A stretch of DNA of 64,000 nucleotides from Clostridia bacterium (GCA_045591115.1 JAZNSH010000006.1:27874-91873), one strand, 5' to 3'; numbered from the stretch's first letter, positions 6,606-41,448 are shown. Notes: generated by a model from the letters alone, not told the origin. Made by a program: numbers and translations.

Positions 6606-6619
6606 GTTGAACACCTCCA

Positions 6620-6741: not shown

Positions 6742-6746
6742 TGGTT

Positions 6747-6775
6747 ATGATACTACTGTTTTTAATTTTTGTCAA
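6747..6775 (-). promoter_or_regulatory. sigma-A promoter of infC operon
   Basis: TTGACA-17-TATCAT. Confidence 0.75.
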
Positions 6776-7646: not shown

Positions 7647-7649
7647 ATT

Positions 7650-8369
7650 TTACCTCCACGTAGGATCGCTGAGATCCTCTACAAGAACTGCGGTTATGGC
7701 AATTCTCTGTTTTCTGTAAGGTCCCTTATTGGGATAGCAGGTATACAAGGTAAGCATATCGCCTTCATCACGGAGGACATATTGACTGTCATCAGCCTCA
7801 AAAATATCTTTTGCGGTTATCTCATAAACATATTTACCGTAAGAAGTGTTCATAACGATCTGTTCACCAAGAGGAATATCCTGAAGATAATAAAGCTGTT
7901 TCTGACGGTTTACGTGGAAAGAAAGCACGCAGTTTCCGCCCTGACCGGGTTTATCTGAAGGGAAATAGTGACCTATGCCATAATTAAGCACGGTTAAGGT
8001 GTCCCCCTCATATACGGGAATATTTTTTGCGCCAAGATAATCTATTGACATTGTTGCCCATTTTTTGCCCCATTTTATCTTTGGAAAATCATTTATATTA
8101 TAGTACACCTTTTCTTCTTCGTTTTCAGTAACCTCAACAATCACCGGAGGAGGAGTAACAAATTCAATTTCGTGCTCTATCTCTCCGTCTTCTTCATTGT
8201 CAATAACGATTTCCTCCTGAGGCTCTCTTTCGATGATAGCATTCCACAAGGGCATCGTTTCAATATAGCTTGAGAAGAAGAACATTGTTATAAGAAAAAT
8301 TACCAAACAAAACAAAAGAAAAGGCGCACAAAGTAATAGAAAATACTTTAGTACGCCATTTAACTTCAT
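7650..8369 (-). CDS. Sortase (class D-like)
   Basis: N-terminal TM; GIGHY...LSFH catalytic His region, LTLYTCYP and downstream Arg. Confidence 0.9.
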   Translation of the reverse strand: MKLNGVLKYFLLLCAPFLLFCLVIFLITMFFFSSYIETMPLWNAIIEREPQEEIVIDNEEDGEIEHEIEFVTPPPVIVEVTENEEEKVYYNINDFPKIKWGKKWATMSIDYLGAKNIPVYEGDTLTVLNYGIGHYFPSDKPGQGGNCVLSFHVNRQKQLYYLQDIPLGEQIVMNTSYGKYVYEITAKDIFEADDSQYVLRDEGDMLTLYTCYPNKGPYRKQRIAITAVLVEDLSDPTWR

Positions 8370-24659: not shown

Positions 24660-24686
24660 AAAAGCCGGGCAAATTGCCCGGCTTAA
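24658..24686. terminator. Bidirectional terminator between convergent genes
   Basis: AAGCCGGGCAA-A-TTGCCCGGCTT inverted repeat. Confidence 0.8.
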
Positions 24687-24700
24687 ATTATATTAGCCTA

Positions 24701-25738
24701 TTAGCCAACCATACCTGAACGTTCAATACTCTGTACGAAAAATCTCTGACAGAAGCAATAGATAACGATGATAGGTGCTATATGCATTATTGTACAAGCT
24801 GCCTGATACAAGGAGTTCAGAACAGCATCACCGCTGGTCTTGAATGCAAGCTCAACGTAACGTGCGCCTTCACCAATTATGTCGGTGGACATAACCTCCG
24901 CACTGGGATTGAGATATGATATATAATTTATATCATTATATTGCCATACGAATGCGAACAGGAAAACTGTTACAAGCATCGGCAAAGCACTGGGAAGCAT
25001 AACCTGAACGAAGGTTCTGAAGGGACCTGCGCCGTCAATATATGCGGCTTCTTCAAGCTCCTTGGGCTGGTTAACAAAGTACTGACGAAGAAGGAATATA
25101 AACAATCCGTTTCGGTACATTGTTGCCGTTGCCGAAAGAAGTCCGATAGCCGTCCAACCGCGGGTAAGGTCAATGTTGGGAATAGTCTTAAGCTGATCAC
25201 CAAATGAGAACATATACAAGGGGTTAAAGGCCTTATATCTGAACAACATAGCTTCGGTAAGCATCTGAACAGGAACCATAAGTGTAAAGATGCAAAGAAG
25301 GAAGATAATATTGTTGCCCTTAAATTTGAATCTTGCAAGACCGTATGCAACCAACATACATGAACACATCTGCAAAATAGCAAAAGCAAATGATGTGGTA
25401 AATGAGCTTAAATACAGCTTGGGAATTTCAGCATGTTCCCACATAGCAATATATGTATCCACGTTAATTGACGTAGGAATCATAATAACGGTAGGATCAT
25501 AAACGTCAGCTTTGGACATAAATGATGTGATAAGCGTCATAAGAATGGGATAAACAACGAGGTAACAAATACCAACAAGAAGAACCGTTCTTATAAGTGC
25601 CCAAACAAAGTTAAATGTACGTTTACCAAAGATAACTCGCTTAAACTTCTGCCAAGGTGTAAGTGTAGGGATGACGAAATTATCAACTTCTTCCGCGCCT
25701 ACTTCATTAGTAAGTTTGATTTTATCAAGTTTTTCCAT
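24701..25738 (-). CDS. Carbohydrate ABC permease (MalG-like)
   Basis: ELEEAAYIDGA EAA motif, AYGLARF, QRFFVQSI. Confidence 0.92.
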   Translation of the reverse strand: MEKLDKIKLTNEVGAEEVDNFVIPTLTPWQKFKRVIFGKRTFNFVWALIRTVLLVGICYLVVYPILMTLITSFMSKADVYDPTVIMIPTSINVDTYIAMWEHAEIPKLYLSSFTTSFAFAILQMCSCMLVAYGLARFKFKGNNIIFLLCIFTLMVPVQMLTEAMLFRYKAFNPLYMFSFGDQLKTIPNIDLTRGWTAIGLLSATATMYRNGLFIFLLRQYFVNQPKELEEAAYIDGAGPFRTFVQVMLPSALPMLVTVFLFAFVWQYNDINYISYLNPSAEVMSTDIIGEGARYVELAFKTSGDAVLNSLYQAACTIMHIAPIIVIYCFCQRFFVQSIERSGMVG

Positions 25739-25750
25739 CTCTACACCTCC

Positions 25751-26641
25751 TTAGTTTTCATAATAAACTAACCTTGAAATAATTCCTGCAACTGCAGCAA
25801 TAATTATGGTTGTCATTAAGAAGTACATCCAGCCCATAGCCATAAAGTCATATCGCTTAACAACAGCATCTGATGCAATATAGCTTAATACGGCGCTTGA
25901 ATTGGTGCAAAGATTTTCAATCATAATGTAAACAGTATTAACAAGGATCATAGGGCTTATCATCGGGAAGGTTATCTTCCAGAAGTTTTCCCAACCAGTT
26001 GCGCCTTCTACCTTTGAAGATTCAAAGATCGAGGGTGATATGGTTTGAAGACCTGCAAGGAATATCAATGTGGGAACACCGGCGCCATTGATAATTGAAC
26101 TAAGTTTATCAAAGGCAGTTCCTATAAATTCACCAAAGGATCCTCCGATAGAATCCTGAATGTTTCCTGCAATATTCATTGCCTGAGATCCAACGGCATC
26201 CATCTGTGTTGTATCAACACCGGTACCACCGGCAAGCATTGATGCTGCAACACCAGCCGAAGTAATAACCGGCATAAAAAGTATTGCACGGGCAAAAGTT
26301 CTTCCACGGAAATTCTGGTTAAGAATATTTGCCATAAGGAAACTGAAGATAAGAACGCAAGGAACTGTAATGATCATATTTGCACCTGTATCAAGAAGTG
26401 CGCTTATGTAGTCACCTTGTGTTTTATAGGCATCAATATATGCCTGGAATCCATAAGGTTCGATGTTGATAACGTTTGTTACCGGGTTAAATACCTGCTC
26501 GTTAAATGACAAAACAAGTGCGGTATAAAGAGGTGAAATAACGAAGAATACAAATCCCAAAATAAAGGGAAGAACGAAGAGCCATCCTGACAAGGAACGC
26601 TTTGTCATCAAGCCTAATTTATAGCTTCTCGGTTTTTTCAT
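25751..26641 (-). CDS. Carbohydrate ABC permease (MalF-like)
   Basis: FLAGLQTISPSIFESSKVEGATGWENFWKITFP. Confidence 0.92.
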   Translation of the reverse strand: MKKPRSYKLGLMTKRSLSGWLFVLPFILGFVFFVISPLYTALVLSFNEQVFNPVTNVINIEPYGFQAYIDAYKTQGDYISALLDTGANMIITVPCVLIFSFLMANILNQNFRGRTFARAILFMPVITSAGVAASMLAGGTGVDTTQMDAVGSQAMNIAGNIQDSIGGSFGEFIGTAFDKLSSIINGAGVPTLIFLAGLQTISPSIFESSKVEGATGWENFWKITFPMISPMILVNTVYIMIENLCTNSSAVLSYIASDAVVKRYDFMAMGWMYFLMTTIIIAAVAGIISRLVYYEN

Positions 26642-29600
26642 TATTCATTTACCTCCTTTGCGCAAAATGATTCTGCTTTAACAACTGTACCATCTTCGGT
26701 AGTATAATCTGTTGAACCATAGTTAACGTAAACTTCCACGCCATTATCGTAAGTTACTTTATTTACACGACCTTCTCCATCAAGATTTTCGTGTTCTGTC
26801 ATAACTGCACCTGCTGTTGACTTAAGCACATCATTGTACTCCTTGTACATTTCAATTGCTTCATCAAACCAGGAGCCGTAATGCAATGAATACATACCTT
26901 CAAACCAGAGATCCTGAACATCCTCGTTAGGTGCATAACACCAACGATAGTACATTCCTGAGCCTGCTTCAACTGCCTGAAGGAAGGACTGACGTGTATC
27001 ACCATAAAGGTTGATGGGATCGCCTGAATACTCAACATATCCGTGAATAACCATCTGATAGAAAGGTACTGACTGATCAGCTAAGTTAAACTTACTGCTT
27101 GTATTGCTGATTTCAAAGATTGTATCAACGTAAGGAAGCATATATGAGTTTGTACCCTTTGCCATAACCTTAACGTCTTTCTTATATTCTTCAGCAACCT
27201 TTGCATAAGTATCGGCAACCTCTCCTCTATCTCTCAGATCCTTAACCTTATAGTTTCCGGGAAGATTATATCCAAGGCTACCAAGGCTTACGCCGTTGAT
27301 ATTAAGCTCTTTGATATCATTAAGTGTTTCCATTGCAAAGCTTTCTGAATTATCATCACTATAGATATCATAGATAAGCGCAGGTGTAACAATAGATGCC
27401 TGGTTAGCTGCTGCTGCCGTATTCCAATCATCAAAATACTGATAATGGTATGCAACCTGGCGTGTTACAAGACGGGATGCATCTGAGAACTCACTATAAC
27501 CATCAAAGGTTTTCGATGCATATACAAGAGCGAGCTCTGTTTCAAAATAAAGGTTCATACCTAATGAATTTGCTTTATCAAGTAAATTCTTAAGGGCATC
27601 TTCCCCACCAAGCTCACTTAACACGTCAGCTTCATTAAATACTGTATTTCTTATACCATTATTAGCCCAACCCTTATAGTTAACAGAAACGTTTTTGATA
27701 CCGTTCTGGTTAAGCTTATCTAAAAGCTCAGCACACTGATCAAAGGTTGTGATTGCTTTAGTTTCCGTATAAGGAATACCGAGGAATGCTGTTTCGTGAT
27801 CATATGCACCAACAAGCTCAATATTAAAAGGAATTTCAGTATAAGCTTTTTTGGTTAAAACATTATTATCAATAAGATAATTTCTGTAAGCTTCAGCCAT
27901 ACCGCTGTAGTTTGCTTTTTCATCAAGGAGCATTGAATATGTAACGGAGATATTATCAGTGTTTATTTCGTTCTGATATATCTTTGCTGTTTTACCTGCA
28001 CTCTTGAACTGAACTTCTTCATATTCAGCCATCTTGAATCTTGAGAAGCAAGTGTTGCGGTCTACAGCGTTCTTATTCTTGCCTGAAATATCTGCAATGA
28101 TGGTTGCATTTGTATCACCTGACTCGATAATAGCAAACATAGCACTTTCCGCACGCTTGATACCGAATACAGGGAGATATGAACCTTCATTTAAGAAAGG
28201 CTTTTGTAAGGTCGCACGGCCGTCATCAAGGCCATAAAGCTGAACTCGAACGTCTGTATTGATGTTTGTTTTGCCGTTATTAAAGTTAATAATTGCACCT
28301 GAACCGTCAGGAACAAACATATAACCTTCTTCTTTCTCTGATGCAGAACCAAAGTATTTAAGAAGATCGATTGAAGAAATTATAAGATTTTCCTTATCAT
28401 ACTGAATTTCTTCAACGGGAATCGTAACATTTAAACCATTCTTTGTAAGAGTATAATCAACGGGGATCCAGAATGTTTTTGCAGATTCACGTTCAAAACC
28501 AAAGTTAGCATTGATCTCATCACGCATTTCTAAGGTCATTCCGGTCTGAATAAATGCATCCTGCAAAATATTGATAAGACGTGCGTTATTCCATTTTGTC
28601 TGGTCAAGGATGATATATACATCCTTACCGGCATTTATAAATTCTTCAATATTGGGAGCAACTGCAAGATAATCTTTCTTAACGTCAGGTGCAAAGCCTG
28701 CCCAGTCTGAAGGTTTAAGTCTCGTATAGAGAGTACTGTTTGTGATAAAGCCTGCTGCCTGGAATAAGTTTGCATCCTTGAACTTCTGAATATATTCCTG
28801 AGCCATTTCACCATCCATACAGGTGGGAACAACGTATTCAGGCTTAACGAGACCTAAAATGTAAATTACACGAAGATTGCCGTTGTGATTTACAACAAAA
28901 TACTGCTCTTTACCATTTTTAGGATCAGAGTTAAGGAAGCAGTCAGTGTAGCTTTCAAGTGTCTTCTGACTACCGTCAGCCTTGTTAAGATAGAATATTG
29001 AAAGCTGGCTTGACATTTCGCCGGGGATACCTGCCGCTCTCGCTGCAGGTGCAGGGTTTGAATACCAAACCTGTTCTTCTCCGCTTGCACTGAGTTTTTT
29101 GCTCTTTAAAGCGAACTCAAGAGTTTCTTCGCAGAAATAGAACTCATAGTTTTCGTTTTCATCAACAAGCTTGAAAACTGTTTCTTTAAGCTCTTGATCA
29201 ACAACTTCTTCAGTTTCGGTTTTTTCATCTGTTTCTGCTTCTTCTGAAGGTGTTGTTGTATCCTCCGTTGTTGTTCCATCAGCAGGAGTTGTTGTTTCCT
29301 CTGTTGTTATTCCATCAGCAGGAGTTGTTGTTTCCTCTGTTGTTGTTCCATCAGCAGGAGTTGTTGTTTCTTCTGTTGTTGTTCCATCAGCAGGAGTTGT
29401 TGTTTCTTCTGTTACTGCTCCTTGAAGCTCAGAAGCCACAGAAACCTCGTTCTCTTCCCCACTTGCCTCCGGTGTTGTTACTTCTTCAGTTACTTCACCT
29501 TCAGCTTCGGGAGTTGTTGCATCTTCTGTTGTTTCATCTTTTACTTCTGAAGCAAAAGTATCTCTTTTTGTGGTTGGTTCATCTTGACGAACCAAAGTTT

Positions 29601-29742
29601 TATCACTTGTAAATTCGTAACGCGGTTCCTCATTTTCAGGAGTTGCGAAACGTTCAGTTTCTTTATCTGCACATCCGGTAAACGCTATGCTCGTAATGAT
29701 CATCATTACAACGAGTAAGGCAGAAATTATTTTGTTCTTCAT
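26641..29742 (-). CDS. DUF5696-like lipoprotein with acidic Thr/Glu-rich repeat linker
   Basis: AFTGC lipobox; WYSNP, GYMFVPDGSGAII, LPVFGIK, YKGWANNG, VPFYQMVIHG. Confidence 0.75.
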   Translation of the reverse strand: MKNKIISALLVVMMIITSIAFTGCADKETERFATPENEEPRYEFTSDKTLVRQDEPTTKRDTFASEVKDETTEDATTPEAEGEVTEEVTTPEASGEENEVSVASELQGAVTEETTTPADGTTTEETTTPADGTTTEETTTPADGITTEETTTPADGTTTEDTTTPSEEAETDEKTETEEVVDQELKETVFKLVDENENYEFYFCEETLEFALKSKKLSASGEEQVWYSNPAPAARAAGIPGEMSSQLSIFYLNKADGSQKTLESYTDCFLNSDPKNGKEQYFVVNHNGNLRVIYILGLVKPEYVVPTCMDGEMAQEYIQKFKDANLFQAAGFITNSTLYTRLKPSDWAGFAPDVKKDYLAVAPNIEEFINAGKDVYIILDQTKWNNARLINILQDAFIQTGMTLEMRDEINANFGFERESAKTFWIPVDYTLTKNGLNVTIPVEEIQYDKENLIISSIDLLKYFGSASEKEEGYMFVPDGSGAIINFNNGKTNINTDVRVQLYGLDDGRATLQKPFLNEGSYLPVFGIKRAESAMFAIIESGDTNATIIADISGKNKNAVDRNTCFSRFKMAEYEEVQFKSAGKTAKIYQNEINTDNISVTYSMLLDEKANYSGMAEAYRNYLIDNNVLTKKAYTEIPFNIELVGAYDHETAFLGIPYTETKAITTFDQCAELLDKLNQNGIKNVSVNYKGWANNGIRNTVFNEADVLSELGGEDALKNLLDKANSLGMNLYFETELALVYASKTFDGYSEFSDASRLVTRQVAYHYQYFDDWNTAAAANQASIVTPALIYDIYSDDNSESFAMETLNDIKELNINGVSLGSLGYNLPGNYKVKDLRDRGEVADTYAKVAEEYKKDVKVMAKGTNSYMLPYVDTIFEISNTSSKFNLADQSVPFYQMVIHGYVEYSGDPINLYGDTRQSFLQAVEAGSGMYYRWCYAPNEDVQDLWFEGMYSLHYGSWFDEAIEMYKEYNDVLKSTAGAVMTEHENLDGEGRVNKVTYDNGVEVYVNYGSTDYTTEDGTVVKAESFCAKEVNE
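29249..29413 (-). repeat. 36-bp in-frame tandem repeat (TEETTTPADGTT), 4 full copies plus a partial
   Basis: CCATCAGCAGGA recurs at 29276, 29312, 29348 and 29384. Confidence 0.95.
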
Positions 29743-29756
29743 ATTCTCCACCTCCA

Positions 29757-30398
29757 TTAACTTCTCAGCTCAAGTTCCATATATATTGTGTAGATAAAGT
29801 TCCAGATTTCCTGAACAAGGAAGAAGAACAATATGCCTAAGAACACAATTATTACCATACCCAAAAGGATAGCAAGTAATATAAGGAACGTTTTGCCGCC
29901 GCTATATTGATGAGTTGTCATTGTTCCGGTATATAACAGAATTGCCGTCCAGCCATATCCTAATACTGTAACAAGCGAAACAATCGTTGCTTCATTTATT
30001 GTCAAAATATTTGTAAGCGGAATAAGCAAAATCTGTGAAAGAACTAAGGGTAACATTGAGTATCCGGTGTAAATAAATACGTCCTTCATACTTCCTTCAC
30101 CATCGAACAAGGTGGTGAGACCCCAGTTTGCGGCAACCCAAATAACAACTACAAGTGCCGTTGTAACAAAGCTGCCTACCATATTAATTCTTTCAGGAAA
30201 AACCTTATATGTGTTGAACGTATAGTTATTAAACTGCATATCGAAGATATTAGTTAACACATATAATATAAGGAATAGTACTGCGATATAACTTCTACCG
30301 CGCTTTTCATGCTTTAAATCCCAGAAACCGTCAAGAGGATGAGTGATAACGTGGAAAGCATATTTAAGATCTTTACCAAGGTTTTTAAGGCGTCCCAT
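29757..30398 (-). CDS. Yip1 family membrane protein
   Basis: HPLDGFWDLKHEKRG, NWGLTTLFDGEG, multiple TMs. Confidence 0.8.
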   Translation of the reverse strand: MGRLKNLGKDLKYAFHVITHPLDGFWDLKHEKRGRSYIAVLFLILYVLTNIFDMQFNNYTFNTYKVFPERINMVGSFVTTALVVVIWVAANWGLTTLFDGEGSMKDVFIYTGYSMLPLVLSQILLIPLTNILTINEATIVSLVTVLGYGWTAILLYTGTMTTHQYSGGKTFLILLAILLGMVIIVFLGILFFFLVQEIWNFIYTIYMELELRS

Positions 30399-32155
30399 TA
30401 TAATTTTCTTCCTCCTGTTTCTACGAATTTCTTAAACTTTCTGTACCAGCCGGTAACAAGTGTTACAACTGTAATAATGATTATTGCCCACATAATATAA
30501 GGCATTGCTTTTTCAAGAACAAGATCTCTGTACTTAAAGAAAGCTTTTCCGTACTCTTCCTGAGAGTAACCTTTCATAAAGTAGTCAGCAGCCTTAAGAT
30601 ACATCTCTCTCTGTTCTGTTGTATCACCGTTAACTACTTCAGTATCAGCGGCCTTAAGGTAATAAATTCTTCCAAGGCCTTTATATGCAAGAGCTGAGTT
30701 TGATGACATACCAAGAATCTGGTTCCATTTTTTTTCAGCTTCATCATAATCACGTTCTTCATGGCTGTTAACTGCATCACGAAGGATCATACCGTATTCT
30801 GTAGGCTTATAAACGCTGATCTGTGCACCCATAGCATCAAGAATAACAATGGTTGAATCGTCATTAAGCAACTCAATGGCAACGGGTTCAAGGTTTGTGC
30901 CTTCGGTAAAGCCAACCTGCTCCTGACGGCCTGATGTTTTATTTTCATCACCTACAGAAACAGCTTTTTGTCCAAGTGCACCGAAAACATACAAAAGATC
31001 ACCTGTATTTGTGTAAGTAAATACACGACCTTTTTGTGAATCAAGCACGCTGGTAAGACCATTCTTTGAAACTGTAACATCACAAAGATATGAATAGCTT
31101 GATCTGTTAATGCCATCACCCCAGTCACCTGAAGGAGGTGTGATACCCGTTCTTAAAAGAACGTCAGCACCTGCGGCATTAAGTTTTCTGAGCGCTGCGC
31201 CAACTTCAGTTGCTGCTGCACCCGCATCAAAGTGTGCTGAAATCTCTTCAAGTTTAAGCTGTGAAATAGTACCGTAAATAAAGCCTTTTTCATCAATGGT
31301 TATATTACTGTATTCGGTTGAGATGTTTTGCTGCATCTTATCCTTAGCTTCAGCAGTAAATAAACGATTCAAAAGTGATGAAAGTGACTGCTTTGTTTTG
31401 GTTGCACCAAAGAATTTTGTAAATCCGCCATCACTGTTAAGCTCAACAATGCCGTGATAGCAATCTCTTGATACAACGAACATACGCATTGCATTATCAA
31501 CAACAACCTTTAATGGTTTATAGGTAATGCTTGTTTTTGAAGAAACTGAAGAATCTGAGCTACTGTTGTCAACGATTTCTTCGCCTTCAACATCAGTATC
31601 CTCGATAACCTCTTCCTCGGTAGTCGCATCAGTCTGCTCCTCAAAGTACTTTGAAAGATCGGGATCATCATAAGTACGAGCGAAAACAAACTTATCTTCT
31701 TCCTCACTATACTTAAAGCTTACAATGCGCTTATTCTCAGTATCACAAATGAAGAGAAGCTCTGTTTCTTCGTGAACAAAAAGACCGTTAGGTGAGTTAA
31801 ATGTTTCAATCTTTCCATCTTTTTCAAATGAAGAGATGATTTGTTTAACTGTGCGCATATCAGAATCAAGAACTATAATACGGTTATTGCCTGTATCTGA
31901 TACAAGGACATATCCTTTTTTATCAAACTGCGTAAGATCCTGGGGATTCTTTAATGGCTTGCCCTCAAGGTTCTCCTCTATTCCGATATCAACACTGTTT
32001 ATTACATCTTCTGTGGTATATGCCTGAGGATCAGGATATACACCACTTTCGGTAATCGTATAGTTTTGGTACGGTGCTGCAAAAGCAGTAACCGTGAACA
32101 TCAGCGAAAGAACAACGGCAAGTACCAGACATGCTGACTTTTTAAATTTCATCAT
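30398..32155 (-). CDS. NHL-repeat beta-propeller and TPR-like protein with signal peptide and C-terminal TM
   Basis: VSDTGNNRIIV and ICDTENKRIV NHL repeats; helical AYKGLGRIYY region; C-terminal TM. Confidence 0.8.
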   Translation of the reverse strand: MMKFKKSACLVLAVVLSLMFTVTAFAAPYQNYTITESGVYPDPQAYTTEDVINSVDIGIEENLEGKPLKNPQDLTQFDKKGYVLVSDTGNNRIIVLDSDMRTVKQIISSFEKDGKIETFNSPNGLFVHEETELLFICDTENKRIVSFKYSEEEDKFVFARTYDDPDLSKYFEEQTDATTEEEVIEDTDVEGEEIVDNSSSDSSVSSKTSITYKPLKVVVDNAMRMFVVSRDCYHGIVELNSDGGFTKFFGATKTKQSLSSLLNRLFTAEAKDKMQQNISTEYSNITIDEKGFIYGTISQLKLEEISAHFDAGAAATEVGAALRKLNAAGADVLLRTGITPPSGDWGDGINRSSYSYLCDVTVSKNGLTSVLDSQKGRVFTYTNTGDLLYVFGALGQKAVSVGDENKTSGRQEQVGFTEGTNLEPVAIELLNDDSTIVILDAMGAQISVYKPTEYGMILRDAVNSHEERDYDEAEKKWNQILGMSSNSALAYKGLGRIYYLKAADTEVVNGDTTEQREMYLKAADYFMKGYSQEEYGKAFFKYRDLVLEKAMPYIMWAIIIITVVTLVTGWYRKFKKFVETGGRKL

Positions 32156-32168
32156 TTTGGTTACCTCC

Positions 32169-33014
32169 TTAATCCTTCATACCTGATGTTGCCATCGTTT
32201 CAATAATGTTACTCTGTGAAATAATGAATGTTGTAATGGGAACTGCCATCATAATAACCGTAACTGCGTTGGCAACACCCTGACGTGCGATACCCGTTGA
32301 TACGATCTGTTGAAGTGCATAAGGCAAGGTTTTCAAAGATTCACTCTGAATAAATACCGATGCACCTAAGTTCCAAAGGTTCTGTACTGAGAATATCATA
32401 AGTGTTAGCCAAGCGGATTTAACCTGAGGCATAACAATCGACCAGAATATTTTGAAACTTCCCGCACCGTCAATTCGTGCGGCTTCAACAAGGGATTTAG
32501 GTATCTGTGACATAAACTGACGCATAAGGTACATACCCATAGGAGCACCGAATGTGGGAATGATAATTGCCCAATAGGTGTCGATCATACCAAGTTCAGC
32601 CTTGATTATGAAGAGGGGCAGCCAAAGAACTGTTCCGTTGAACATAAGGGCAGTTTTGATCATATTGGTCAAGAACTTGCTTCCGGGGAATGTGTACATA
32701 GCAAGAGGATATGCGCACAATGAGCAGAAAACGATCTGACCAAAGGTACCTGCTGCGGTAATGAATATAGTATTAAAGAAGTATCTTGAGAAGGGAACCC
32801 AAGAATTTCCCATCAAAACAAACAAATCGGTATAGTTTGTTGTAACCCATCTGTTGGGTAACAATGTTGGCGGGAATTTGAATAATTCATCCATAGGTTT
32901 AAATGAGTTACCAACGGCATAAACCATAGGAAGAACCATTAAGCAAGCAACTGCGCAAAGGAAGAAGATTCCCAAAAAATTACCTGCGCCTGAACGGTTA
33001 ACTTTCTTTGCCAT
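32169..33014 (-). CDS. Carbohydrate ABC permease (MalG-like)
   Basis: SLVEAARIDGA EAA motif. Confidence 0.93.
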   Translation of the reverse strand: MAKKVNRSGAGNFLGIFFLCAVACLMVLPMVYAVGNSFKPMDELFKFPPTLLPNRWVTTNYTDLFVLMGNSWVPFSRYFFNTIFITAAGTFGQIVFCSLCAYPLAMYTFPGSKFLTNMIKTALMFNGTVLWLPLFIIKAELGMIDTYWAIIIPTFGAPMGMYLMRQFMSQIPKSLVEAARIDGAGSFKIFWSIVMPQVKSAWLTLMIFSVQNLWNLGASVFIQSESLKTLPYALQQIVSTGIARQGVANAVTVIMMAVPITTFIISQSNIIETMATSGMKD

Positions 33015-33017
33015 AAA

Positions 33018-33959
33018 TTACTCACCCACCTTTGACAACAATTTAGCAATCAGCTTGTTAGCCAGAATCTGCAACAAGAACAGAAGAACTGCTATTGCGC
33101 AGGCATAACCAAGTTCCATTCGTTGGTTAGCATAGTCTTCAAGGTGATGTATTAGCGTATGAGCAACGTAGTCCTGCGAGGGATAACCAACAAGTGAGGT
33201 TATTGCCGCACCTACTGAGAAAGCACCGGAAATACTCATAACTGCACCGAACATAAGCTGTGGCTTCATATAAGGTAACGTAATATACCAAAGTTCCTGC
33301 CATCTGTTTTTAACACCGTCAATAGCACCTGCTTCATAAAGCGTACGGTCAACGTTTTGAAGACCTGCAACGAAGGTAAGGAAGCTGGTACCCAGTGACG
33401 ACCATAGGATAACTATCAAACAACACGGGACGATATAATCTACGTTTTCAAGCCACTTGATGTTGGTCATCGTAATACCTGTGTTCATAAGGAAACCGTT
33501 AAGGAGACCATATTGGTCAGATGAGAAGATGATCTTCCAAACGGGATAAACACTGGCAAGTGAAGGTGCATAGTAGAAAAGAGTCATAACTGCCCTTGTC
33601 TTTCTGCCCAGCTCATTGATGAGCCAGGCGAAGAACAATGACATTATGTAACCGCCGGGACCGATAATCACTGCGAAGAACAAGGTGTTCTTAAAAGCAG
33701 TCATAAACAAGTCATCAGCAGTAAAAAGACGTATATAGTTATCAAATCCCGTCCACTGTGGGGGTTCAAGTACGTTAAAGTACGTGAATGAGAAGTACAT
33801 TGCAACGATAACGGGAAGAATCGTAAAGACTGCAAATACTAAAAGATAAGGAAGCATGAATAAATATAAGCTACCGTTTTTACGCATTTCTTTAAACTGG
33901 TATTTGAGCCAATCTTTAAAGAATGCTTTGTTTTTGGCTTTAATTTCGCTCTTAGCCAT
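33018..33959 (-). CDS. Carbohydrate ABC permease (MalF-like)
   Basis: AGLQNVDRTLYEAGAIDG. Confidence 0.93.
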   Translation of the reverse strand: MAKSEIKAKNKAFFKDWLKYQFKEMRKNGSLYLFMLPYLLVFAVFTILPVIVAMYFSFTYFNVLEPPQWTGFDNYIRLFTADDLFMTAFKNTLFFAVIIGPGGYIMSLFFAWLINELGRKTRAVMTLFYYAPSLASVYPVWKIIFSSDQYGLLNGFLMNTGITMTNIKWLENVDYIVPCCLIVILWSSLGTSFLTFVAGLQNVDRTLYEAGAIDGVKNRWQELWYITLPYMKPQLMFGAVMSISGAFSVGAAITSLVGYPSQDYVAHTLIHHLEDYANQRMELGYACAIAVLLFLLQILANKLIAKLLSKVGE

Positions 33960-33978
33960 TACTCTATTCTACCACCTT

Positions 33979-36900
33979 TCAACTCATCATTTGCTCGATC
34001 TTTTGCTTGAATTCTTCACGCTTACGATCGATTTCTCTGTCAATCTTGCTTACATATTCTGTAAACGTTGTGTTGGGGTCAACACCGGGGTTATTGATAA
34101 CTTCCTTCCAAGCGAACTCAACGTTACGTGCAGTATAGTAACCACCGGGAACCTGAGGAATAGCTTTACACCAGTTCCACTGCTCCTGGATCATAGTCAT
34201 TGACTGCTTATCCCAAGGAAGTTCGGCCATTGCCTGAAGGTTAGCAGTCTGATAACGTGCTGCTGCACCTAACAAGCTTTCGATTTCAGTACCGAAACGG
34301 GACTGAGCTTCTTCACCTGTCCACCATGTCATAAACTGCCAAGCACGAGAAATTCTTTCTCTCTCTTCCTCTGTATCTGATTTCATTGAAAGCATTACAC
34401 AACCTGAGGTCGTGCTTGCGCAAGAATGGTCAACATAGGTTTCACCGTTTTCATCGGTTCTTACTGTTCCTGGAACAAGCGAGAACTCCCAAAGGCCCTG
34501 AATTTCAGGTGCAAATACTGCAAGCTGTGAATACTGGCTATAGCTTGCGATACCAATGGGAACTTCACCGGTACGGAAACGGTTAGCAAAGTCGTATGTA
34601 TTTGGTAAGTTATATAATGTATAGAACTCTGTCCATTCCTTAAATGCATCAAGCGCTGCATCTGTGGTAAGCATCGTTGAATCTCTTTCATCAGTATAAT
34701 ACTGACCGCCCTTCTGATAAAGAAGTGTTGCGAAGGTATTGTTACCTGATCCAACTGCGCCAACAACGGGAACGGGCATTGCAAATGTCATTTGCTTATT
34801 CTGAAGATGACCTATTATATTATATACCTCATCCCAAGTCTCAGGAGGTGTAAGATTTAACTCCTCAAGGATATCGGTACGATAGAAGGTCATAAAGAAG
34901 TCTTGTGTTTCGGGAATTGCATAGATACCGTTACCGAATGTAAAGGGATCAACCGCGCTGTGCTTATAACGCTCTTCATTAGCAAGCACTTCTCTCCAGT
35001 TGGGGAAAAGTTCATCGTTTGCAAGGTTCATAACCGCGCCACGGAATGCATAGTTAATTGCATCAACCGCGCCACGGGACAGACAGACTTCCGGCCCTAT
35101 GCCCGATAGGACGGACGGTAGCAACGAGCCTCCGGCAACAAGACGTGTACTTACGGTAACACCGGTCTTTGCAGTAAACATATCATCGATCAACTGCTTA
35201 AGGATGGTGGCGTTATCACGGGAGCCGGTAAGACCTGCACCGGTTTCAAGCCAAACAACAACGGGTTCCTGACCGTCCTGAGCAACGGTACCGCCGATGT
35301 TATCATAGTCCTCTGTAAATGAAGCTATAAATGAACGGATCTCATGAAGCAACTTTGCGAAGAAGCCTGCGTCGGCTTCAGGTAAGCTTTCGCTATTGGC
35401 TGACTCTTCTGAAGTAATTACAAAATAGTCAAGCTCCAAGGGGTTCTGGCTCATATCATTGATCCAAGTACCCATAGCGGCAATGGCATCCTTAAGGTTT
35501 GTAAACAATGTAGGGATAACTGTGTGATCCATCTTAAGAGTTGCAAATGTTCTGGTCCAATCAGCCTCGGTGATCTCACCTGCATTAAGCTTATTATTAA
35601 GGAACACGATCATATCTGCAAGTTCGCCATCACTTGATGGATCAGAAGATGCACCAAACTTTGTTTCAAGTGCCTCTTCAAAAGCTGAGATGCTTGAGCT
35701 GTTTACCATTCTTTCAAGCAAAAGAATCATACTTTCAAGGCTGGTAAGCTGAGCACTGATCTCATCGCCGTACTGATTCATCATCTCGTTTCTAAGAATT
35801 ACAAGATTATAATATTCAGTCTTAAGAATTTCAAGTGCATCGGGAACGAGAGCATCAAGCATATAGCTCTTGTTAGTATCAGGAGAAGCACTTGTGATCA
35901 TAAGGATTCGTCTGTATGCATAGTTAAGACTGGTAAGGCTGTTTTCACCTTCTGCAAGGAAATCACCCATTTTACCAAGGGTTGATTCAAGGCGGATTCT
36001 GTTCTCCCCTGCTTTTAAGTGGAAGAGGATCGTATCGCCTTCAGCAGTCTCAGGTGTGTACATTGAAAAGCTGTTATCATAATTGAAAATAAGATTTTCA
36101 ACTTCAGCACAGGGTACTTCACCGTTTATCGTAAGCTTACGTGTTGTGGTAAGACCGCTTAATGTGTTCTGACGAGCCTTGAAGGAAATAACATAGAGTC
36201 CTTCCTTCTCAACGTTAACGCGCCACTCGATCCAATCGTTAGGTGCCTGCCATTTATCTGCACCGATGGTATTATAACGGATCTTTGCATGGTGGTAAGG
36301 AACGGTTGAGGGAGATGATCTGTCGGTAATAGCATACAGCGTAGGTGATGATTTAAGTACACTGTAAGTTGCCTCGGGAATCTTTCCTTCTATTTCCTGA
36401 TTAAGGTTCAAACCATATCTTTCAGCATCGGCAAAAATAGCAGCCTGATCTTCGGTATATGCTTCAGGTGCGTGCATACCTTCTGCCTGGATGAAATAAA
36501 GAGCATCTGTTACTTGAGATAAGCCTTTGTTTGCATACTCTTTCTTAACATCAGCATAAGGCTTTGCATCAGCAATCTGATGGATGGTGATCTTTTCAAC
36601 AAGCATACCTTCCTTGATTGCTTCGAAAGCTAAAACGTGTGAGCCTTCCTCAAGATAGAACTTAAAGGGGTCAACCTCATAACCCATATAGTCGCGAACA
36701 GAAACTGTCTGCCACTGATTGGTGCCTACCTGATAAGGACGCTTTTCGTTCTGCGTATCGCTGTGAAGCTTAAGAATGCTTTCATCTTTCCAAACACGCT
36801 CAAGATTTACCTGACGTGCTTCATAGAAAGGAACCTTATAGTCAATATAAACTCTGCGCTGTACAGCGGAGCTTTGGCAATCCAGCTTTACGATATCGCC

Positions 36901-37434
36901 GTTAGCATCTTTATATTCCAAAGATTCATATGGCATATATGAAAATGTGATGTTATACCAACCTGACTGGGGAACATCGATCTCCCAACCGTAGATACCC
37001 TCTTCAGGGAACAAAGCGCCATCATACTTTTCATTTTCATAATTTTCTGACGTTACGCCTTCCACTACGATAGCGGGACCTATTTTCTCACCTGTGGTTC
37101 TGTCAAACTGAACGGCATCCTTAGCGGTATACTCGCCCCAGTTTTCAACAACAGGCATAGCAGTGTCCTTAATGGAGTTGCGATATGCCTTATAGTCAAA
37201 CTCATTGTTGATTGACTGATCAAAGGCCTGAGGTGTAACCCCCTCAGAAGACTCGCTTTCTTCACTGCCCTCATTTTCTGTTATGCTTGTTTCATCCTGA
37301 ACATCTGTGGTGTTTTCCTGCTCAAGGTTAACATCGGTTTCTTCCGGTTCAGCATAAGCCACACACGAGAAGATCGAAAGCACCATCGATGCAACAAGAA
37401 CGAAGATAAGCATCTTGTTACGCAAAGACTTCAT
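33979..37434 (-). CDS. Giant extracellular solute-binding protein with N-terminal CBM-like modules
   Basis: Sec signal (AYA); two beta-sandwich-like motifs (WEIDVPQSGWYNI, WRVNVEKEGLYVI); C-terminal sugar-SBP motifs (YAIP, FYRTDIL, PETWDE). Confidence 0.82.
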   Translation of the reverse strand: MKSLRNKMLIFVLVASMVLSIFSCVAYAEPEETDVNLEQENTTDVQDETSITENEGSEESESSEGVTPQAFDQSINNEFDYKAYRNSIKDTAMPVVENWGEYTAKDAVQFDRTTGEKIGPAIVVEGVTSENYENEKYDGALFPEEGIYGWEIDVPQSGWYNITFSYMPYESLEYKDANGDIVKLDCQSSAVQRRVYIDYKVPFYEARQVNLERVWKDESILKLHSDTQNEKRPYQVGTNQWQTVSVRDYMGYEVDPFKFYLEEGSHVLAFEAIKEGMLVEKITIHQIADAKPYADVKKEYANKGLSQVTDALYFIQAEGMHAPEAYTEDQAAIFADAERYGLNLNQEIEGKIPEATYSVLKSSPTLYAITDRSSPSTVPYHHAKIRYNTIGADKWQAPNDWIEWRVNVEKEGLYVISFKARQNTLSGLTTTRKLTINGEVPCAEVENLIFNYDNSFSMYTPETAEGDTILFHLKAGENRIRLESTLGKMGDFLAEGENSLTSLNYAYRRILMITSASPDTNKSYMLDALVPDALEILKTEYYNLVILRNEMMNQYGDEISAQLTSLESMILLLERMVNSSSISAFEEALETKFGASSDPSSDGELADMIVFLNNKLNAGEITEADWTRTFATLKMDHTVIPTLFTNLKDAIAAMGTWINDMSQNPLELDYFVITSEESANSESLPEADAGFFAKLLHEIRSFIASFTEDYDNIGGTVAQDGQEPVVVWLETGAGLTGSRDNATILKQLIDDMFTAKTGVTVSTRLVAGGSLLPSVLSGIGPEVCLSRGAVDAINYAFRGAVMNLANDELFPNWREVLANEERYKHSAVDPFTFGNGIYAIPETQDFFMTFYRTDILEELNLTPPETWDEVYNIIGHLQNKQMTFAMPVPVVGAVGSGNNTFATLLYQKGGQYYTDERDSTMLTTDAALDAFKEWTEFYTLYNLPNTYDFANRFRTGEVPIGIASYSQYSQLAVFAPEIQGLWEFSLVPGTVRTDENGETYVDHSCASTTSGCVMLSMKSDTEEERERISRAWQFMTWWTGEEAQSRFGTEIESLLGAAARYQTANLQAMAELPWDKQSMTMIQEQWNWCKAIPQVPGGYYTARNVEFAWKEVINNPGVDPNTTFTEYVSKIDREIDRKREEFKQKIEQMMS

Positions 37435-37529
37435 TTTATTCCTCCTGAATGCTAAATTGAATCCGCAAAACTTGCCTTATATATAATAATGAGTGCCATT
37501 TCTGCAGATTGATACATATTATCTACCCT

Positions 37530-37558
37530 ATCATACCACTAACTGAGCTTAAAGTCAA
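37530..37558 (-). promoter_or_regulatory. sigma-A promoter of the 8-gene carbohydrate operon
   Basis: TTGACT-17-TATGAT with extended TG. Confidence 0.7.
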
Positions 37559-37827: not shown

Positions 37828-39627
37828 ATGAAGACACTAAAGCGACTTTTTTCATACTATTCTCCTTACCTGGGTATCATGATTCTTTACCTGATTATGG
37901 GTGCTTTGTTGGTTTCCTTGGCTATGCTGTTGCCTCAGATCACAAAGCATATAATCGGTTCTGTTATCGGTGATGACCCTTTTTCGTTTTTTGGTTGGGA
38001 GCTTAACTTAAATAAACAGCAGCTCTTTATTGTGCTGGCTTCCCTTTGGCTTCTTATTGTAGTAGTAAGGCAGGCAATCGGATTTTTGCGTGGATATCTT
38101 ATGGCGAAGGCCTCTCTTAAAGCCGTTTGTAAGATGCGCGAGGATATTTTTGACAGACTTTTGTGGCAATCGGTTTCCTTCATTCAAAAGGAAAATACGG
38201 GAAATATTCTCACTATCCTAAACGGTGATACGGAAATGATCAAAAATTTCTTCACCGGAACTCTTCCTGGCATTATTGAATCTGTTTTCGGCTTCATTTT
38301 TGCAAGTATAATGATTTGGCAAATGAGCCCTTTAATGGTAATCACCGCCTATGTTTTCACTATTCCGTTGTTCATTATTTCAAAGAGAATGAGCAAGGTA
38401 TTTTACAAATGGTATCATTTCGTTCGTGAATCAAGTGCTGACCTGAGTATGGTTACCCAGGAGAATCTTAACGGTATAAGAATAGTTAAGGCTTACGCTC
38501 AGGAGGAGCAGGAAAAGAAGAAGTTTGCCGAGAAGAATGAAGGCTACAGATATCACGCGATTAACTATATGGTCGTTTACTGCAAGGAGTATATTCCCTT
38601 TGCCATTATAAGCCATATTCCAAATATTGTTCTTACGGTTATTGCAGCGTTGCTTGTTGTTAACGGTAATATCAACGGTGTAGATAATAACCCTTGGGCA
38701 ATGACTGTTGCTGAATTTATTGCAGTTGGCGGATATGTTGGATATATTCTCGTTCCCTTCCAGCAAGCTAACAACTGGATAAATGCAGCACAGCAAGCCG
38801 CAACCAGCGCTGAAAAGGTTTTTAAATTCCTTAATATCGGCTCTACCATTGCATCAAAACCCAATGCGGAAAAGCCTGATGTTACAACTGTTGATTTAAA
38901 ATTAAATGAGGTTTCTTTCTCACACGAAGGCAAGAAAATACTTAATAACATAAACATCGATCTTCCCCAAGGAAAGACCCTTGGTATTATCGGAACTACC
39001 GGCAGCGGCAAGACGATGCTCACAAACATTATGGCGCGTTTCTTTGATCCTACAAGCGGCGAGGTTACCATAAACGGGGTTAACGTTAAGGATATGGATC
39101 TTACCACTTTAAGATCGTGCTTCTCACCTGTTTTGCAGGACGTTTTCCTGTTCTCGGATACCATTGCAAAAAACATTGCATTTGGTCGCCCGGATGCAAC
39201 ATATGACGATGTGCGCAGATGTGCAGAAGTAGCTCAAGCACACGGATTTATTTCAAAAATGCCTGATGAATACGATACTATCGTCGGCGAGCGCGGAATG
39301 GGACTTTCAGGCGGACAAAAGCAGAGAATTTCTATTGCCAGAGCACTTTTATACAACTCCCCCATCCTTATCTTTGACGATGCTACAAGTGCTCTTGATA
39401 TGGAAACCGAGCAGGAGCTTTATAAGCGCTTGAAGGAAGAATATTCAAAGCAGAGCCGAATCATAATTGCCCACAGAATTTCATCTGTAAAGGACTGTGA
39501 CGAGATCATCGTTCTTGAAAAAGGAACTATCGTTGAGCGTGGAAACCACCAGGAGCTTGTGGACAAAAAAGGACGTTACTATGAAATTTACAAAGAGCAG
39601 TATTCAACTGTTCTTGAGGCAATGTAA
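37828..39627 (+). CDS. Heterodimeric ABC exporter subunit A
   Basis: TMD plus GTTGSGKT, LSGGQKQR, degenerate IFDD Walker B. Confidence 0.93.
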   Translation: MKTLKRLFSYYSPYLGIMILYLIMGALLVSLAMLLPQITKHIIGSVIGDDPFSFFGWELNLNKQQLFIVLASLWLLIVVVRQAIGFLRGYLMAKASLKAVCKMREDIFDRLLWQSVSFIQKENTGNILTILNGDTEMIKNFFTGTLPGIIESVFGFIFASIMIWQMSPLMVITAYVFTIPLFIISKRMSKVFYKWYHFVRESSADLSMVTQENLNGIRIVKAYAQEEQEKKKFAEKNEGYRYHAINYMVVYCKEYIPFAIISHIPNIVLTVIAALLVVNGNINGVDNNPWAMTVAEFIAVGGYVGYILVPFQQANNWINAAQQAATSAEKVFKFLNIGSTIASKPNAEKPDVTTVDLKLNEVSFSHEGKKILNNINIDLPQGKTLGIIGTTGSGKTMLTNIMARFFDPTSGEVTINGVNVKDMDLTTLRSCFSPVLQDVFLFSDTIAKNIAFGRPDATYDDVRRCAEVAQAHGFISKMPDEYDTIVGERGMGLSGGQKQRISIARALLYNSPILIFDDATSALDMETEQELYKRLKEEYSKQSRIIIAHRISSVKDCDEIIVLEKGTIVERGNHQELVDKKGRYYEIYKEQYSTVLEAM

Positions 39628-39642
39628 AGGAGGTGGCGATAT

Positions 39643-41448
39643 ATGGCACGCAACAGATATATGGATGATGAAAAAGAGGCCTCCAAGCTGAACGCAGGTT
39701 TGTTAAAACGCTTATTGAAATACACCTTTCCCTATAAGAAAAAATTCATTTTAGGTCTCATTCTTCTAATTATAAACGTTCTTATTTCACTGATCTGGCC
39801 GATGCTTTTGCAATGGATGATCGATAATGTTCTTACCGATGGCGGAACACACTATAACGCCGTTACAACTATGCTGATCGCCGTAAGCACCGTCACCCTT
39901 ATTCTTTTTACCGACGTATTTATTGCTTCAAAGCGACTCGTAAAAATTACCGAGCTTGGACATAACACAATTCACGATATCCGAAAAGAGCTTTTCGAGC
40001 ACGTTCAAGGTCTTGCATTCAAGTATTTTGACGACCGTCCCGCAGGAAAAATATTGGTTCGAATTACATCATACGTTGACGGCCTTGCTAACCTTTTATC
40101 AACTTCATTGATTCAGCTTATCGTTGATGTTTTCACTCTTATTTGCATCGTAATAATTCTGCTTTCAATGAACGTAACACTGACGTTAGTCAGCTTTATG
40201 ATACTCATTCCACTTTGCATTTTTATCGTACTTATGAAGCGTGTTATTGCAAAGTGGTCACGAAGGGTAAGAACCAAAGCAAGTAACCGTACCGCTTATC
40301 TTCACGAAAATATTATGGGTGTGAACGTTACCCAATCATTTAACCGTGAGAATAAGAACAGCGAGGAGCTTGTAAGACTTGATAACGACGTAAATCATCA
40401 ATTTATACGTTTTCATATTTCAAGTGCTACTATGCTTCCTGCAGTTGATATTCTTTCAACTCTCGGAACAATTCTCGTATATTACTTCGCCATTCAGTTT
40501 ATTTCCGACGGTAATATGACTTTAGGCGCGCTTACTGCTTTTACCTCATATATGACTCGTTTCTGGCAGCCTATTTCGTCGTTTACAAACATTTTTACAC
40601 AATTCAGCGAAGCAGCCGGTAATATTGAAAGAATTTTTGAAACGATTGATACTCCTTCAGACATTCAGGACTCACCCGATGCATACGAGCTTCCTGATAT
40701 AACGGGCAGTGTTGAGTATAAAAACGTTACATTCTCTTATGACAACGAACACAACATTCTCGAAAATGTTTCCTTTACTGTAAAACCCGGTGAAATGATC
40801 GCATTCGTAGGTCCTACCGGTGCAGGAAAGACTACCGTTGTTAACTTACTTTCACGATTTTATGATGTAACGGGCGGAAGTGTTGAAATTGACGGTCACG
40901 ACGTAAGAAACGTTACCCTCTCTTCCCTTCGCACTCAGGTTGGCGTTATGATGCAGGATTCCTTCGTTTTCTCAGGAACGGTTATTGATAACATTCGTTA
41001 CGGCAGACCTGATGCCACCGATGAAGAGTGCATTGCTGCCGCTGAAAAGGTTTATGCCTCAGACTTCATTGAAGCACTGCCCAAGGGTTATTACACCAAG
41101 CTTGAGGAACGCGGTGCAGGACTTTCTACTGGCGAAAGACAGTTATTATCCTTTGCCCGTGCAGTTCTTGCCGATCCGAAAATTCTTATTCTTGATGAGG
41201 CAACCTCATCTATTGATACGCAGACAGAGATGCTTATTCAGCGCGCATTACAGAAGCTTCTTGAAAACAGAACAAGCTTTGTTATTGCACACAGACTTTC
41301 TACCATAAAACGCGCTGATCAGATTATGTGCATCGCCAATAAGGGCATTGCGGAAAGAGGCACTCATCAAGAGCTTATGGATATGAAAGGCATTTACTAT
41401 GAATTAAATATGAGCCAATACAGGGCTCTTGTAAACAAGGAGAACTAA
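39643..41448 (+). CDS. Heterodimeric ABC exporter subunit B
   Basis: TMD plus GPTGAGKT, degenerate LSTGERQ, ILDE. Confidence 0.93.
   Translation: MARNRYMDDEKEASKLNAGLLKRLLKYTFPYKKKFILGLILLIINVLISLIWPMLLQWMIDNVLTDGGTHYNAVTTMLIAVSTVTLILFTDVFIASKRLVKITELGHNTIHDIRKELFEHVQGLAFKYFDDRPAGKILVRITSYVDGLANLLSTSLIQLIVDVFTLICIVIILLSMNVTLTLVSFMILIPLCIFIVLMKRVIAKWSRRVRTKASNRTAYLHENIMGVNVTQSFNRENKNSEELVRLDNDVNHQFIRFHISSATMLPAVDILSTLGTILVYYFAIQFISDGNMTLGALTAFTSYMTRFWQPISSFTNIFTQFSEAAGNIERIFETIDTPSDIQDSPDAYELPDITGSVEYKNVTFSYDNEHNILENVSFTVKPGEMIAFVGPTGAGKTTVVNLLSRFYDVTGGSVEIDGHDVRNVTLSSLRTQVGVMMQDSFVFSGTVIDNIRYGRPDATDEECIAAAEKVYASDFIEALPKGYYTKLEERGAGLSTGERQLLSFARAVLADPKILILDEATSSIDTQTEMLIQRALQKLLENRTSFVIAHRLSTIKRADQIMCIANKGIAERGTHQELMDMKGIYYELNMSQYRALVNKEN

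Follow-up and report, generated by a model that had tools for sequence, protein, structure and literature searches.

Compared with the Sus paradigm of the Bacteroidota, much less is understood of how large glycans are captured on the surface of Gram-positive bacteria from gut and soil, and an eight-gene operon of a Clostridia bacterium could bear on the question. The operon lies in a 64,000-nt stretch of DNA (GCA_045591115.1 JAZNSH010000006.1:27874-91873), hereafter the window, from whose start positions are counted. In the open reading frame (ORF) listing its genes run in one direction on the minus strand (24701-37434), between a promoter-like site and a strong terminator, and putatively encode a giant substrate-binding protein (SBP), a MalF/MalG-type permease pair (1F and 1G), an NHL beta-propeller protein, a Yip1-family membrane protein, a DUF5696 lipoprotein and a second permease pair (2F and 2G). 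What would a sugar importer do with two permease pairs, one outsized binding protein and three further proteins? An initial annotation made from the sequence had given these eight genes with coordinates and domain content that agree with the ORF listing, Pfam and NCBIfam. We find that the operon encodes an ATP-binding cassette (ABC) sugar importer accompanied by an accessory module that is widely conserved and undescribed in the literature searched. That the whole is an integrated import module resembling a polysaccharide utilization locus (PUL), with new accessory subunits, has in our judgment slightly more in its favor than against it.

A conserved core across the phylum

Scanning species-representative genomes with the DUF5696 protein yielded a close-relative set of 10 loci from Clostridia metagenome-assembled genomes (59-80% identity). 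All eight genes occur in the same order in 8 of these 10 loci, the other two lying on contigs of just 2.2 and 4.9 kb. When 401 genomes were sampled evenly over the phylum, 32 of them, in 19 of 278 genera, contained DUF5696 (E ≤ 1e-20). A distant set of 40 loci, from 28 DUF5696-positive genomes belonging to other families of the phylum, was mapped with the window proteins and Pfam. The propeller-Yip1 gene or genes stand directly upstream of DUF5696 in all 40 (in locus L077 by Pfam only, in L090 with a small extra ORF between), and permeases best matching 2F and 2G follow directly after it in 39. The giant SBP with a 1F/1G pair was found in 20 of the 40; in five further loci a giant-type SBP comes directly after 2G without a second pair, two of these loci ending at the edge of the fetched stretch. 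Gene content and order in these genomes support co-conservation far beyond chance. The survey of synteny across Bacillota suggested in the initial annotation therefore upholds the eight genes as a co-conserved set but narrows the core to propeller-Yip1, DUF5696 and pair 2.

Two distant loci depart from this layout. In L077 (G350:C60), which has the weakest Yip1 match (E 4e-16), a propeller-Yip1 fusion and DUF5696 are followed by a gene for an HlyD-like membrane-fusion protein and two unassigned ORFs before the permeases. In L080 an IS110-family transposase gene (6607-7935) splits permease 1G into pieces of 189 and 215 amino acids (aa), and the first importer of that copy is probably inactivated.

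The flanks of the distant loci are rich in genes for glycan degradation. They include glycoside hydrolases (GH) of families GH26, GH10, GH42, GH35, GH31, GH38, GH5, GH43, GH28, GH2, GH3 and GH130, along with alpha-galactosidase, fucosidase, arabinofuranosidase, pectate and other lyases, and LacI or AraC regulators. An ordinary SBP (~450 aa; mostly 430-660 aa) lies within the two flanking ORFs on either side in 25 of the 40 loci (17/21 plus 8/19). That pair 2 has no SBP of its own, as the initial annotation remarked, is thus true at the locus but is a feature of this clade. In one distant locus a gene for an MsmK-type ATPase stands beside the module (L073:14039-15157), a neighborhood that links the module to that ATPase type.

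The module is also abundant. Among 1.84 billion representatives, the DUF5696 profile matched 7,501 clusters at 50% identity (E ≤ 0.001), of which 4,214 reached E ≤ 1e-30. Paenibacillus, Lachnoclostridium, Halanaerobiales and Cellulosilyticaceae are among the named sources, and the top representatives are named only as 'hypothetical protein', apart from one Cellulosilyticaceae record. Five genomes of 2.2-3.0 Mb (G044, G054, G088, G172 and G236) have at least seven Yip1-subfamily matches each. Loci within a single genome adjoin different enzyme sets: those of G054 lie beside a rhamnosidase-like gene and a pectate lyase, beside an apiosidase and GH31, and beside an alpha-galactosidase.

Propeller, Yip1 and the permeases

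The NHL protein (30398-32155, 585 aa; this and all other operon features are on the minus strand) has Pfam NHL repeats, a signal peptide and a C-terminal membrane helix (residues 546-564) preceded by a TPR-like stretch. Compared with PDB sequences, residues 62-150 match NHL propellers, and residues 465-504 give a faint CTPR match. The Yip1 protein (29757-30398, 213 aa) contains five hydrophobic helices and scores 76.1 bits against Pfam Yip1 (cut-off 28.6). Propeller and Yip1 form one ORF of 635-835 aa in 31 of the 40 distant loci and two genes, as in the window, in the other nine; the fused homologues that were scanned carry Pfam NHL, TPR and Yip1. Because a single fused gene is so common, we count the two as one unit, and the fusions support the earlier suggestion that NHL and Yip1 work together. 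A conserved P-Y-x-x-Y-T-Y-D-x-W-type motif directly follows the signal peptide of the propeller protein across families (40+ loci).

Permease 2F (25751-26641, 296 aa) is divergent, scoring 23.9 bits against BPD_transp_1 alone, under the 26.4 cut-off, versus 28 bits with its neighbors in frame. Permease 2G (24701-25738, 345 aa) reaches 56 bits. EAA-type coupling loops are present in the family consensus of both, the loop of 2G reading EEAAxIDGA. In the first pair, 1F (33018-33959, 313 aa, MalF/UgpA-like) and 1G (32169-33014, 281 aa, MalG/UgpE-like) score 55 and 51.7 bits against BPD_transp_1, and their best NCBIfam resemblances are UgpA and UgpE, respectively. For the four permeases together the best NCBIfam resemblances are UgpA, UgpE and MalG, all far under the equivalog cut-offs.

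The giant binding protein

The 1151-aa binding protein (33979-37434) has an N-terminal signal peptide, judged from the hydropathy of its N-terminus, and matches Pfam SBP_bac_8 only at residues 751-1051 (65 bits). Its AlphaFold2 (AF2) model, made from a 26-sequence alignment with a mean predicted local distance difference test score (pLDDT) of 83.7, comprises a disordered linker (23-67), two beta-sandwiches (98-285 and 359-485), a helical bundle (487-661) and an oligosaccharide-type binding domain (~667-1151). In structure comparison with VIA, the binding domain best fits a beta-1,2-glucooligosaccharide binding protein (5ysb; Z 34.7 over model residues 723-1145), and CbpB, MalE and UgpB are further matches by Foldseek and VIA.

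The N-terminal ~650 residues are harder to place. Pfam at E ≤ 1 gave only sub-threshold matches (GH115_C, E 0.0018; CBM_35, E 0.063), the protein atlas gave unnamed clusters and a lead to GH115_C scored at 0.87, and the Foldseek and VIA lists are dominated by the binding domain, with no assignment of an N-terminal domain. The beta-sandwiches may be called similar to carbohydrate-binding modules from the shape of the model.

DUF5696 has the fold of GH129 glycosidases

The DUF5696 protein (26641-29757, 1038 aa) is a lipoprotein with the lipobox FTGC that scores 587.9 bits against Pfam DUF5696 (PF18952; cut-off 25.6), covering positions 7-612 of the 612 in the profile. Its AF2 model, from a 43-sequence alignment, has a mean pLDDT of 82.3, and residues ~67-187 are disordered and linker-like. 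With VIA, model residues 196-1037 superpose on residues 1-632 of NagBb (5wzr; Z 29.8, root-mean-square deviation 4.2, 581 of 630 residues aligned), and ZgGH129 follows at Z 29.1, the two GH129 structures aligning over 581-587 residues. The next tier, made up of GH13, GH101, GH36 and a Flavonifractor galactosaminidase, is about 10 Z units lower (Z ~19-20). Foldseek likewise ranks ZgGH129 3,6-anhydro-D-galactosidase (5opq, E 1e-30) and NagBb (E 1e-24) first among PDB matches, then GH101, GH36 and GH31. The model contains the N-terminal beta-sandwich, (beta/alpha)8 barrel and C-terminal beta-sandwich of GH129. Among PDB sequences the family profile reaches GH129 at E 9e-15 and 4e-10; the single sequence finds nothing meaningful there (best E 0.51), and GH129 is reached by the family profile only. 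Our data indicate that the DUF5696 family descends from GH129-type enzymes. The comparison with glycosidase TIM barrels proposed in the initial annotation thus gave a clear match, and it qualifies another statement made there, that the operon has no ATPase, hydrolase or regulator: the locus has no ATPase or regulator and Pfam recognizes no hydrolase in it, but DUF5696 has a glycoside-hydrolase fold.

Its catalytic positions are another matter. According to a published account of GH129 (PMC5698469), NagBb has two catalytic residues, one of them Asp435, with Asp486 as its conserved counterpart in ZGAL_3152; mutants of the conserved acids are inactive, and ZgGH129 has only one of the two NagBb residues in common. 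Asp435 aligns with the second Ser of an SLGSLG motif by HMMER and with Ser827 of the window protein by MAFFT, an alignment of modest confidence. The second acid, which we take to be Glu478 of NagBb, aligns with Lys867 by MAFFT. Ser and Lys occupy these columns in the window protein and all its close relatives (11/11 each), and hydrolysis by the canonical mechanism is unlikely in the clade for this reason. Three cytoplasmic 570-aa paralogues in the host genome have Asp (3/3) and Glu (3/3) instead, and the 40 distant module members have Asp in the first column in 18 cases and Asp or Glu in the second in 20. Both acids are kept in 8 of 20 loci with a single permease pair versus 1 of 20 with two pairs, a difference for which kinship may account. 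These alignments suggest that module members are under relaxed constraint at the two canonical catalytic positions and that DUF5696 of the window clade is most likely non-catalytic. Since it has lost the canonical catalytic residues, we read it as a binding or hand-over protein rather than an enzyme.

Enzyme or binding protein, complex or co-transcription

Several points weigh against this reading of DUF5696 and against an integrated apparatus. The catalytic residues were mapped by distant sequence alignments, with low HMMER posteriors in the block. Of the 40 distant DUF5696 proteins, 9 have both acids, 9 just the first, 11 just the second and 11 lack both; in loci L057-L060 Asp stands at both positions. 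Three acids in other parts of the barrel (Asp511, Asp894 and Glu930) are almost invariant. Enzymes may exist among the members, and catalysis in the family could depend on residues other than the canonical pair. The clade protein might then still be an extracellular glycosidase with non-canonical residues, trimming glycans at the surface and coupling this to immediate import of the products. Such an enzyme would explain the full-length GH129 architecture, the near-invariant acids and the distant members that have both canonical acids or one of them (9/40 and 20/40), and catalytic residues appear to move within the GH129 fold, given that ZgGH129 has just one of NagBb's two in the published account (PMC5698469). 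We nonetheless consider it unlikely. Ser and Lys hold the canonical positions throughout the clade, and the 31 distant proteins without both acids have non-acidic residues, Tyr, Gln, Thr, Gly, His and Asn among them, in one or both columns, which looks like relaxed constraint. DUF5696 genes moreover adjoin enzymes for mannan, xylan, pectin and galactan, and a general role fits this range better than specificity for a single bond.

Other such points concern assembly. Related genomes are non-independent samples; the lipobox is not conserved in the binding protein (7 of 28 by a loose pattern); and physical assembly of the module parts would be deduced here from genes and predictions. A Yip1 profile made from the module (E ≤ 1e-10) matches exactly the 32 DUF5696 genomes out of 401, of which only its silence in the other 369 is informative because the profile was built from these loci. 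Complex prediction for 2F and 2G with Yip1 as partner, using alignments of 47 rows per chain in the same locus order, gave weak support: the median score is 0.57 (runs of 0.57, 0.55 and 0.60; best of three controls 0.01), the runs share at least 80% of contacts, and the pLDDT of the partner is at least 71. The tool was calibrated on 80 solved complexes, 58 of which reached the mark, and on 110 mismatches, of which 2 did, but only 7 of the 80 solved complexes, along with both mismatches, passed at a score ≤ 0.60. A prediction in this band would be wrong more often than right unless the pairing is already likely; here the conserved adjacency of the genes and the precedent of YknW (see below) make the prior favorable.

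The weak prediction suits a simpler explanation, in which the operon merely co-transcribes two independent CUT1 importers and three separate proteins without a shared complex. The giant SBP with 1F and 1G is a canonical three-gene importer unit and is separable from the rest, being absent from 20 of the 40 distant loci. Co-transcription would not, however, readily explain why Yip1 of this subfamily and DUF5696 occur in the same 32 genomes and neither in the other 369, why adjacency is strict in 39-40 of 40 loci from many families, why stop and start codons overlap at three junctions, or why propeller and Yip1 are fused in 31 loci. We regard mere co-transcription as quite improbable, somewhat more so than a surface glycosidase.

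Host genome and proposed mode of action

There are CUT1-family ABC importers of oligosaccharides in Gram-positive bacteria that share one MsmK/MsmX-type ATPase, and the initial annotation had suggested looking for a shared one. The host assembly (2.69 Mb, 103 contigs, 94% complete) contains a single OB_MalK match, a 377-aa ATPase with ABC_tran, OB_MalK and TOBE_2 domains (C17:52216-53349; L010:7217-8350). It is an orphan with no permease beside it and adjoins two tandem apiosidase-like (GH140-type) genes. An AraC regulator and a 680-aa protein without a Pfam family are encoded nearby as well. By tblastn the host genome holds no further copy of any of the eight proteins, giving only cross-hits between the two G-type permeases, and among 12 permease matches in a BPD_transp_1 scan the four of the locus are the only CUT1-like ones.

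The locus offers only one SBP for two permease pairs. SBP_bac_1/8 matches in the host genome number four: the giant protein, a PotD-like protein in a Pot-type operon and two lipoproteins elsewhere. One of these, an orphan of 516 aa (C20:33350-34900; L093:351-1901), is weakly similar to the ordinary SBPs that follow 2G in other genomes (best E 4e-10, small set) and is a lead as candidate binding protein for pair 2. Alternatively the giant protein, whose type directly follows 2G in five distant loci, may serve this pair. The other, of 442 aa on C82, has no similarity to module-adjacent binding proteins. Its gene lies directly before one for a 547-aa protein (L094:17-3001 for the two together) that has a membrane segment at its N-terminus and a GerE/LuxR DNA-binding domain at its C-terminus; the two may form a binding-protein-dependent sugar sensor, a candidate regulator of the operon in trans.

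The host also encodes three 570-aa DUF5696 paralogues without a signal peptide (L011:143-1849 on C41; L012:824-2542 and L012:3416-5140 on C88). They are probably active cytoplasmic glycosidases of unassigned family, judging from their sequences. Weak DUF6259 and GH101 matches were also seen in them, and their genes adjoin GH2, SASA-type esterase and GH140-like genes. A fourth paralogue is a 262-aa fragment on C14 (L013:7828-8616).

From these parts we propose that the operon encodes an apparatus for taking up glycans, with type I (CUT1) ABC importers as its basis. Its core would consist of a membrane anchor (the NHL propeller outside the cell, the TPR stretch, the membrane helix and the five-helix Yip1), a lipid-anchored DUF5696 protein derived from GH129-type glycosidases, and the dedicated permease pair 2F/2G. 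The window clade would add a second importer, the giant binding protein with its own pair 1F/1G. Both pairs would most likely be powered by the sole MsmK-type ATPase of the genome, which is encoded elsewhere. The two long-tethered surface proteins, DUF5696 and the giant SBP, may keep glycan chains or large oligosaccharides at the membrane for delivery to the translocon or translocons, while propeller-Yip1 would keep the surface parts against the permeases, with Yip1 docking on them and the propeller and TPR stretch presented outside. Imported oligosaccharides would then be cut in the cytoplasm, in part by the three intact DUF5696 paralogues. Gene content, co-conservation, fusion, fold, residue changes and the single ATPase are direct observations from which this proposal starts; physical assembly, the binding role of DUF5696, the nature of the substrate and the use of that ATPase are what we infer.

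Locus boundaries and surroundings

The eight genes are tightly coupled, with distances from first to last of 19, 3, 13, -1, -1, -1 and 12 bases. TAATG stop/start overlaps occur at 30398, 29757 and 26641; the initial annotation had listed the first and last of these and left out the one at 29757. About 95 bases 5' of the first start codon is a promoter-like site of the extended -10 type (TTGACT-17-TATGAT, with TG preceding the -10, 37530-37558; 10 of 12 consensus matches), and an intrinsic-terminator-like hairpin with a 10-bp stem, seven G-C pairs and a T run (24662-24684) begins 17 bases past the last stop codon. Since the scanned region shows no excess of promoter-like or terminator-like sites over shuffles, the argument for either site is its position alone.

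The neighbors of the operon are genes for isoleucyl-tRNA synthetase, RNA-modification enzymes, a nucleotidyltransferase, two ABC exporters and RmuC, with no importer-type ATPase, regulator or recognized hydrolase among them. The exporters are half-size (ABC_membrane plus ABC_tran, 599 and 601 aa) and, with RmuC after them, are divergent from the operon at 37828-42710 on the plus strand; the first of the two genes is the upstream neighbor in most close relatives too. Base composition gives no genomic-island signal, the GC content of 0.38-0.44 across the locus being similar to its surroundings. The 21 sequencing runs listed for the locus are all DNA-type metagenomes from animal gut or feces, none RNA; one has next to no sampled words of the locus, and only one has at least half of them.

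These surroundings bear on a further explanation, in which propeller-Yip1 and DUF5696 would serve sensing or turnover of the cell's own envelope glycans and the permease pair would recycle the products. The clade operon does sit among housekeeping genes, beside a UTP-glucose-1-phosphate uridylyltransferase-type gene and without a nearby regulator or degradative enzyme, and some sensor domains are NHL propellers, as in PknD, a PDB match. The distant loci, however, are embedded among genes for degradation of plant and host glycans with LacI or AraC regulators, and Pfam and NCBIfam find no signaling output domain in any of the eight proteins. We hold sensing or envelope turnover to be very improbable.

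Implications

The module is large, as judged by the number of DUF5696 clusters, widespread, often present in multiple copies and found beside varied degradative enzymes. If its parts assemble, it would give type I ABC sugar importers their first architecture with accessory subunits and show a glycosidase fold recruited to transport in a non-catalytic part, and it would offer a practical marker for glycan utilization loci in Firmicute genomes. Cultivable carriers such as Paenibacillus possess the module, and it is directly testable there.

Comparison with known systems

By its permeases and binding domain the system is a member of the CUT1 ABC importers. The operon has MalF/MalG-type permeases with the BPD_transp_1 fold and EAA loops and an extracellular oligosaccharide-type binding domain of the SBP_bac_1/8 kind; like CUT1 importers that share one ATPase, it contains no ATPase gene, and a single orphan MalK/MsmK-type gene with an OB/TOBE domain, whose product may serve these permeases, is present elsewhere in the 94%-complete genome. 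Unlike ordinary CUT1 importers, it has two permease pairs, an 1151-aa SBP with ~650 extra N-terminal residues, three additional conserved genes (propeller, Yip1 and DUF5696) and no ordinary SBP in the locus.

DUF5696 resembles the GH129 enzymes NagBb, an alpha-N-acetylgalactosaminidase of Bifidobacterium bifidum (5wzn), and ZgGH129 (5opq) in whole-chain fold and sequence relationship. It differs in its Ser and Lys at the catalytic positions, in being a lipoprotein with a ~120-residue linker and an N-terminal extension, and in the constant position of its gene, with propeller-Yip1 on one side and an ABC permease pair on the other. Because neither catalytic residue is kept, we do not file it as a member of GH129 despite common fold and ancestry.

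For Yip1 there is one bacterial precedent among the systems compared: a passage on Bacillus YknWXYZ describes YknW as a Yip1-family protein that modulates assembly of the ABC transporter YknXYZ (PMC4887032). The likeness is that of a Yip1-family protein encoded with an ABC transporter and proposed as an accessory subunit. YknYZ is a MacB-type exporter with a membrane-fusion protein, whereas here Yip1 goes with a propeller outside the cell and its putative partners are the permeases of a type I importer. Pfam and NCBIfam find no FtsX or HlyD domain in the eight proteins.

In line with the initial annotation, which had seen here a candidate for an undescribed system, no description of it came up in a search of freely accessible papers, their supplementary tables aside. 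Within that search DUF5696 or PF18952 was named in no paper found, Yip1 combined with ABC transporter, permease, glycoside hydrolase, NHL repeat, solute-binding protein or polysaccharide returned irrelevant papers only, and GH129 with pseudoenzyme returned only general papers on pseudoenzymes, not useful here.

Sus-like systems, or utilisomes, belong to the polysaccharide utilization loci of the Bacteroidota, and the operon had been proposed as their Gram-positive analogue. The analogy stands in organization and function, and only there, the Yip1-permease prediction being weak. As in Sus, a core of transporter and surface proteins is conserved, surface proteins are lipid-anchored, and genomes carry paralogous loci, each with different glycan-degrading enzymes and a regulator. 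Unlike Sus, transport would be by an ATP-driven ABC importer across the cytoplasmic membrane, and Pfam finds neither a SusC TonB-dependent transporter nor a SusD homologue among the eight proteins. The likeness lies in organization and not in ancestry. A bolder version of the proposal, which we put forward tentatively and think less probable than the integrated import module itself, would make the core a Firmicute counterpart of SusC/D and the defining marker of Gram-positive PULs: a utilisome at the cell surface, assembled about an ABC importer of type I, in which a pseudoenzyme DUF5696 and the giant SBP feed long glycans to the translocon and Yip1 is a new integral subunit of the importer.

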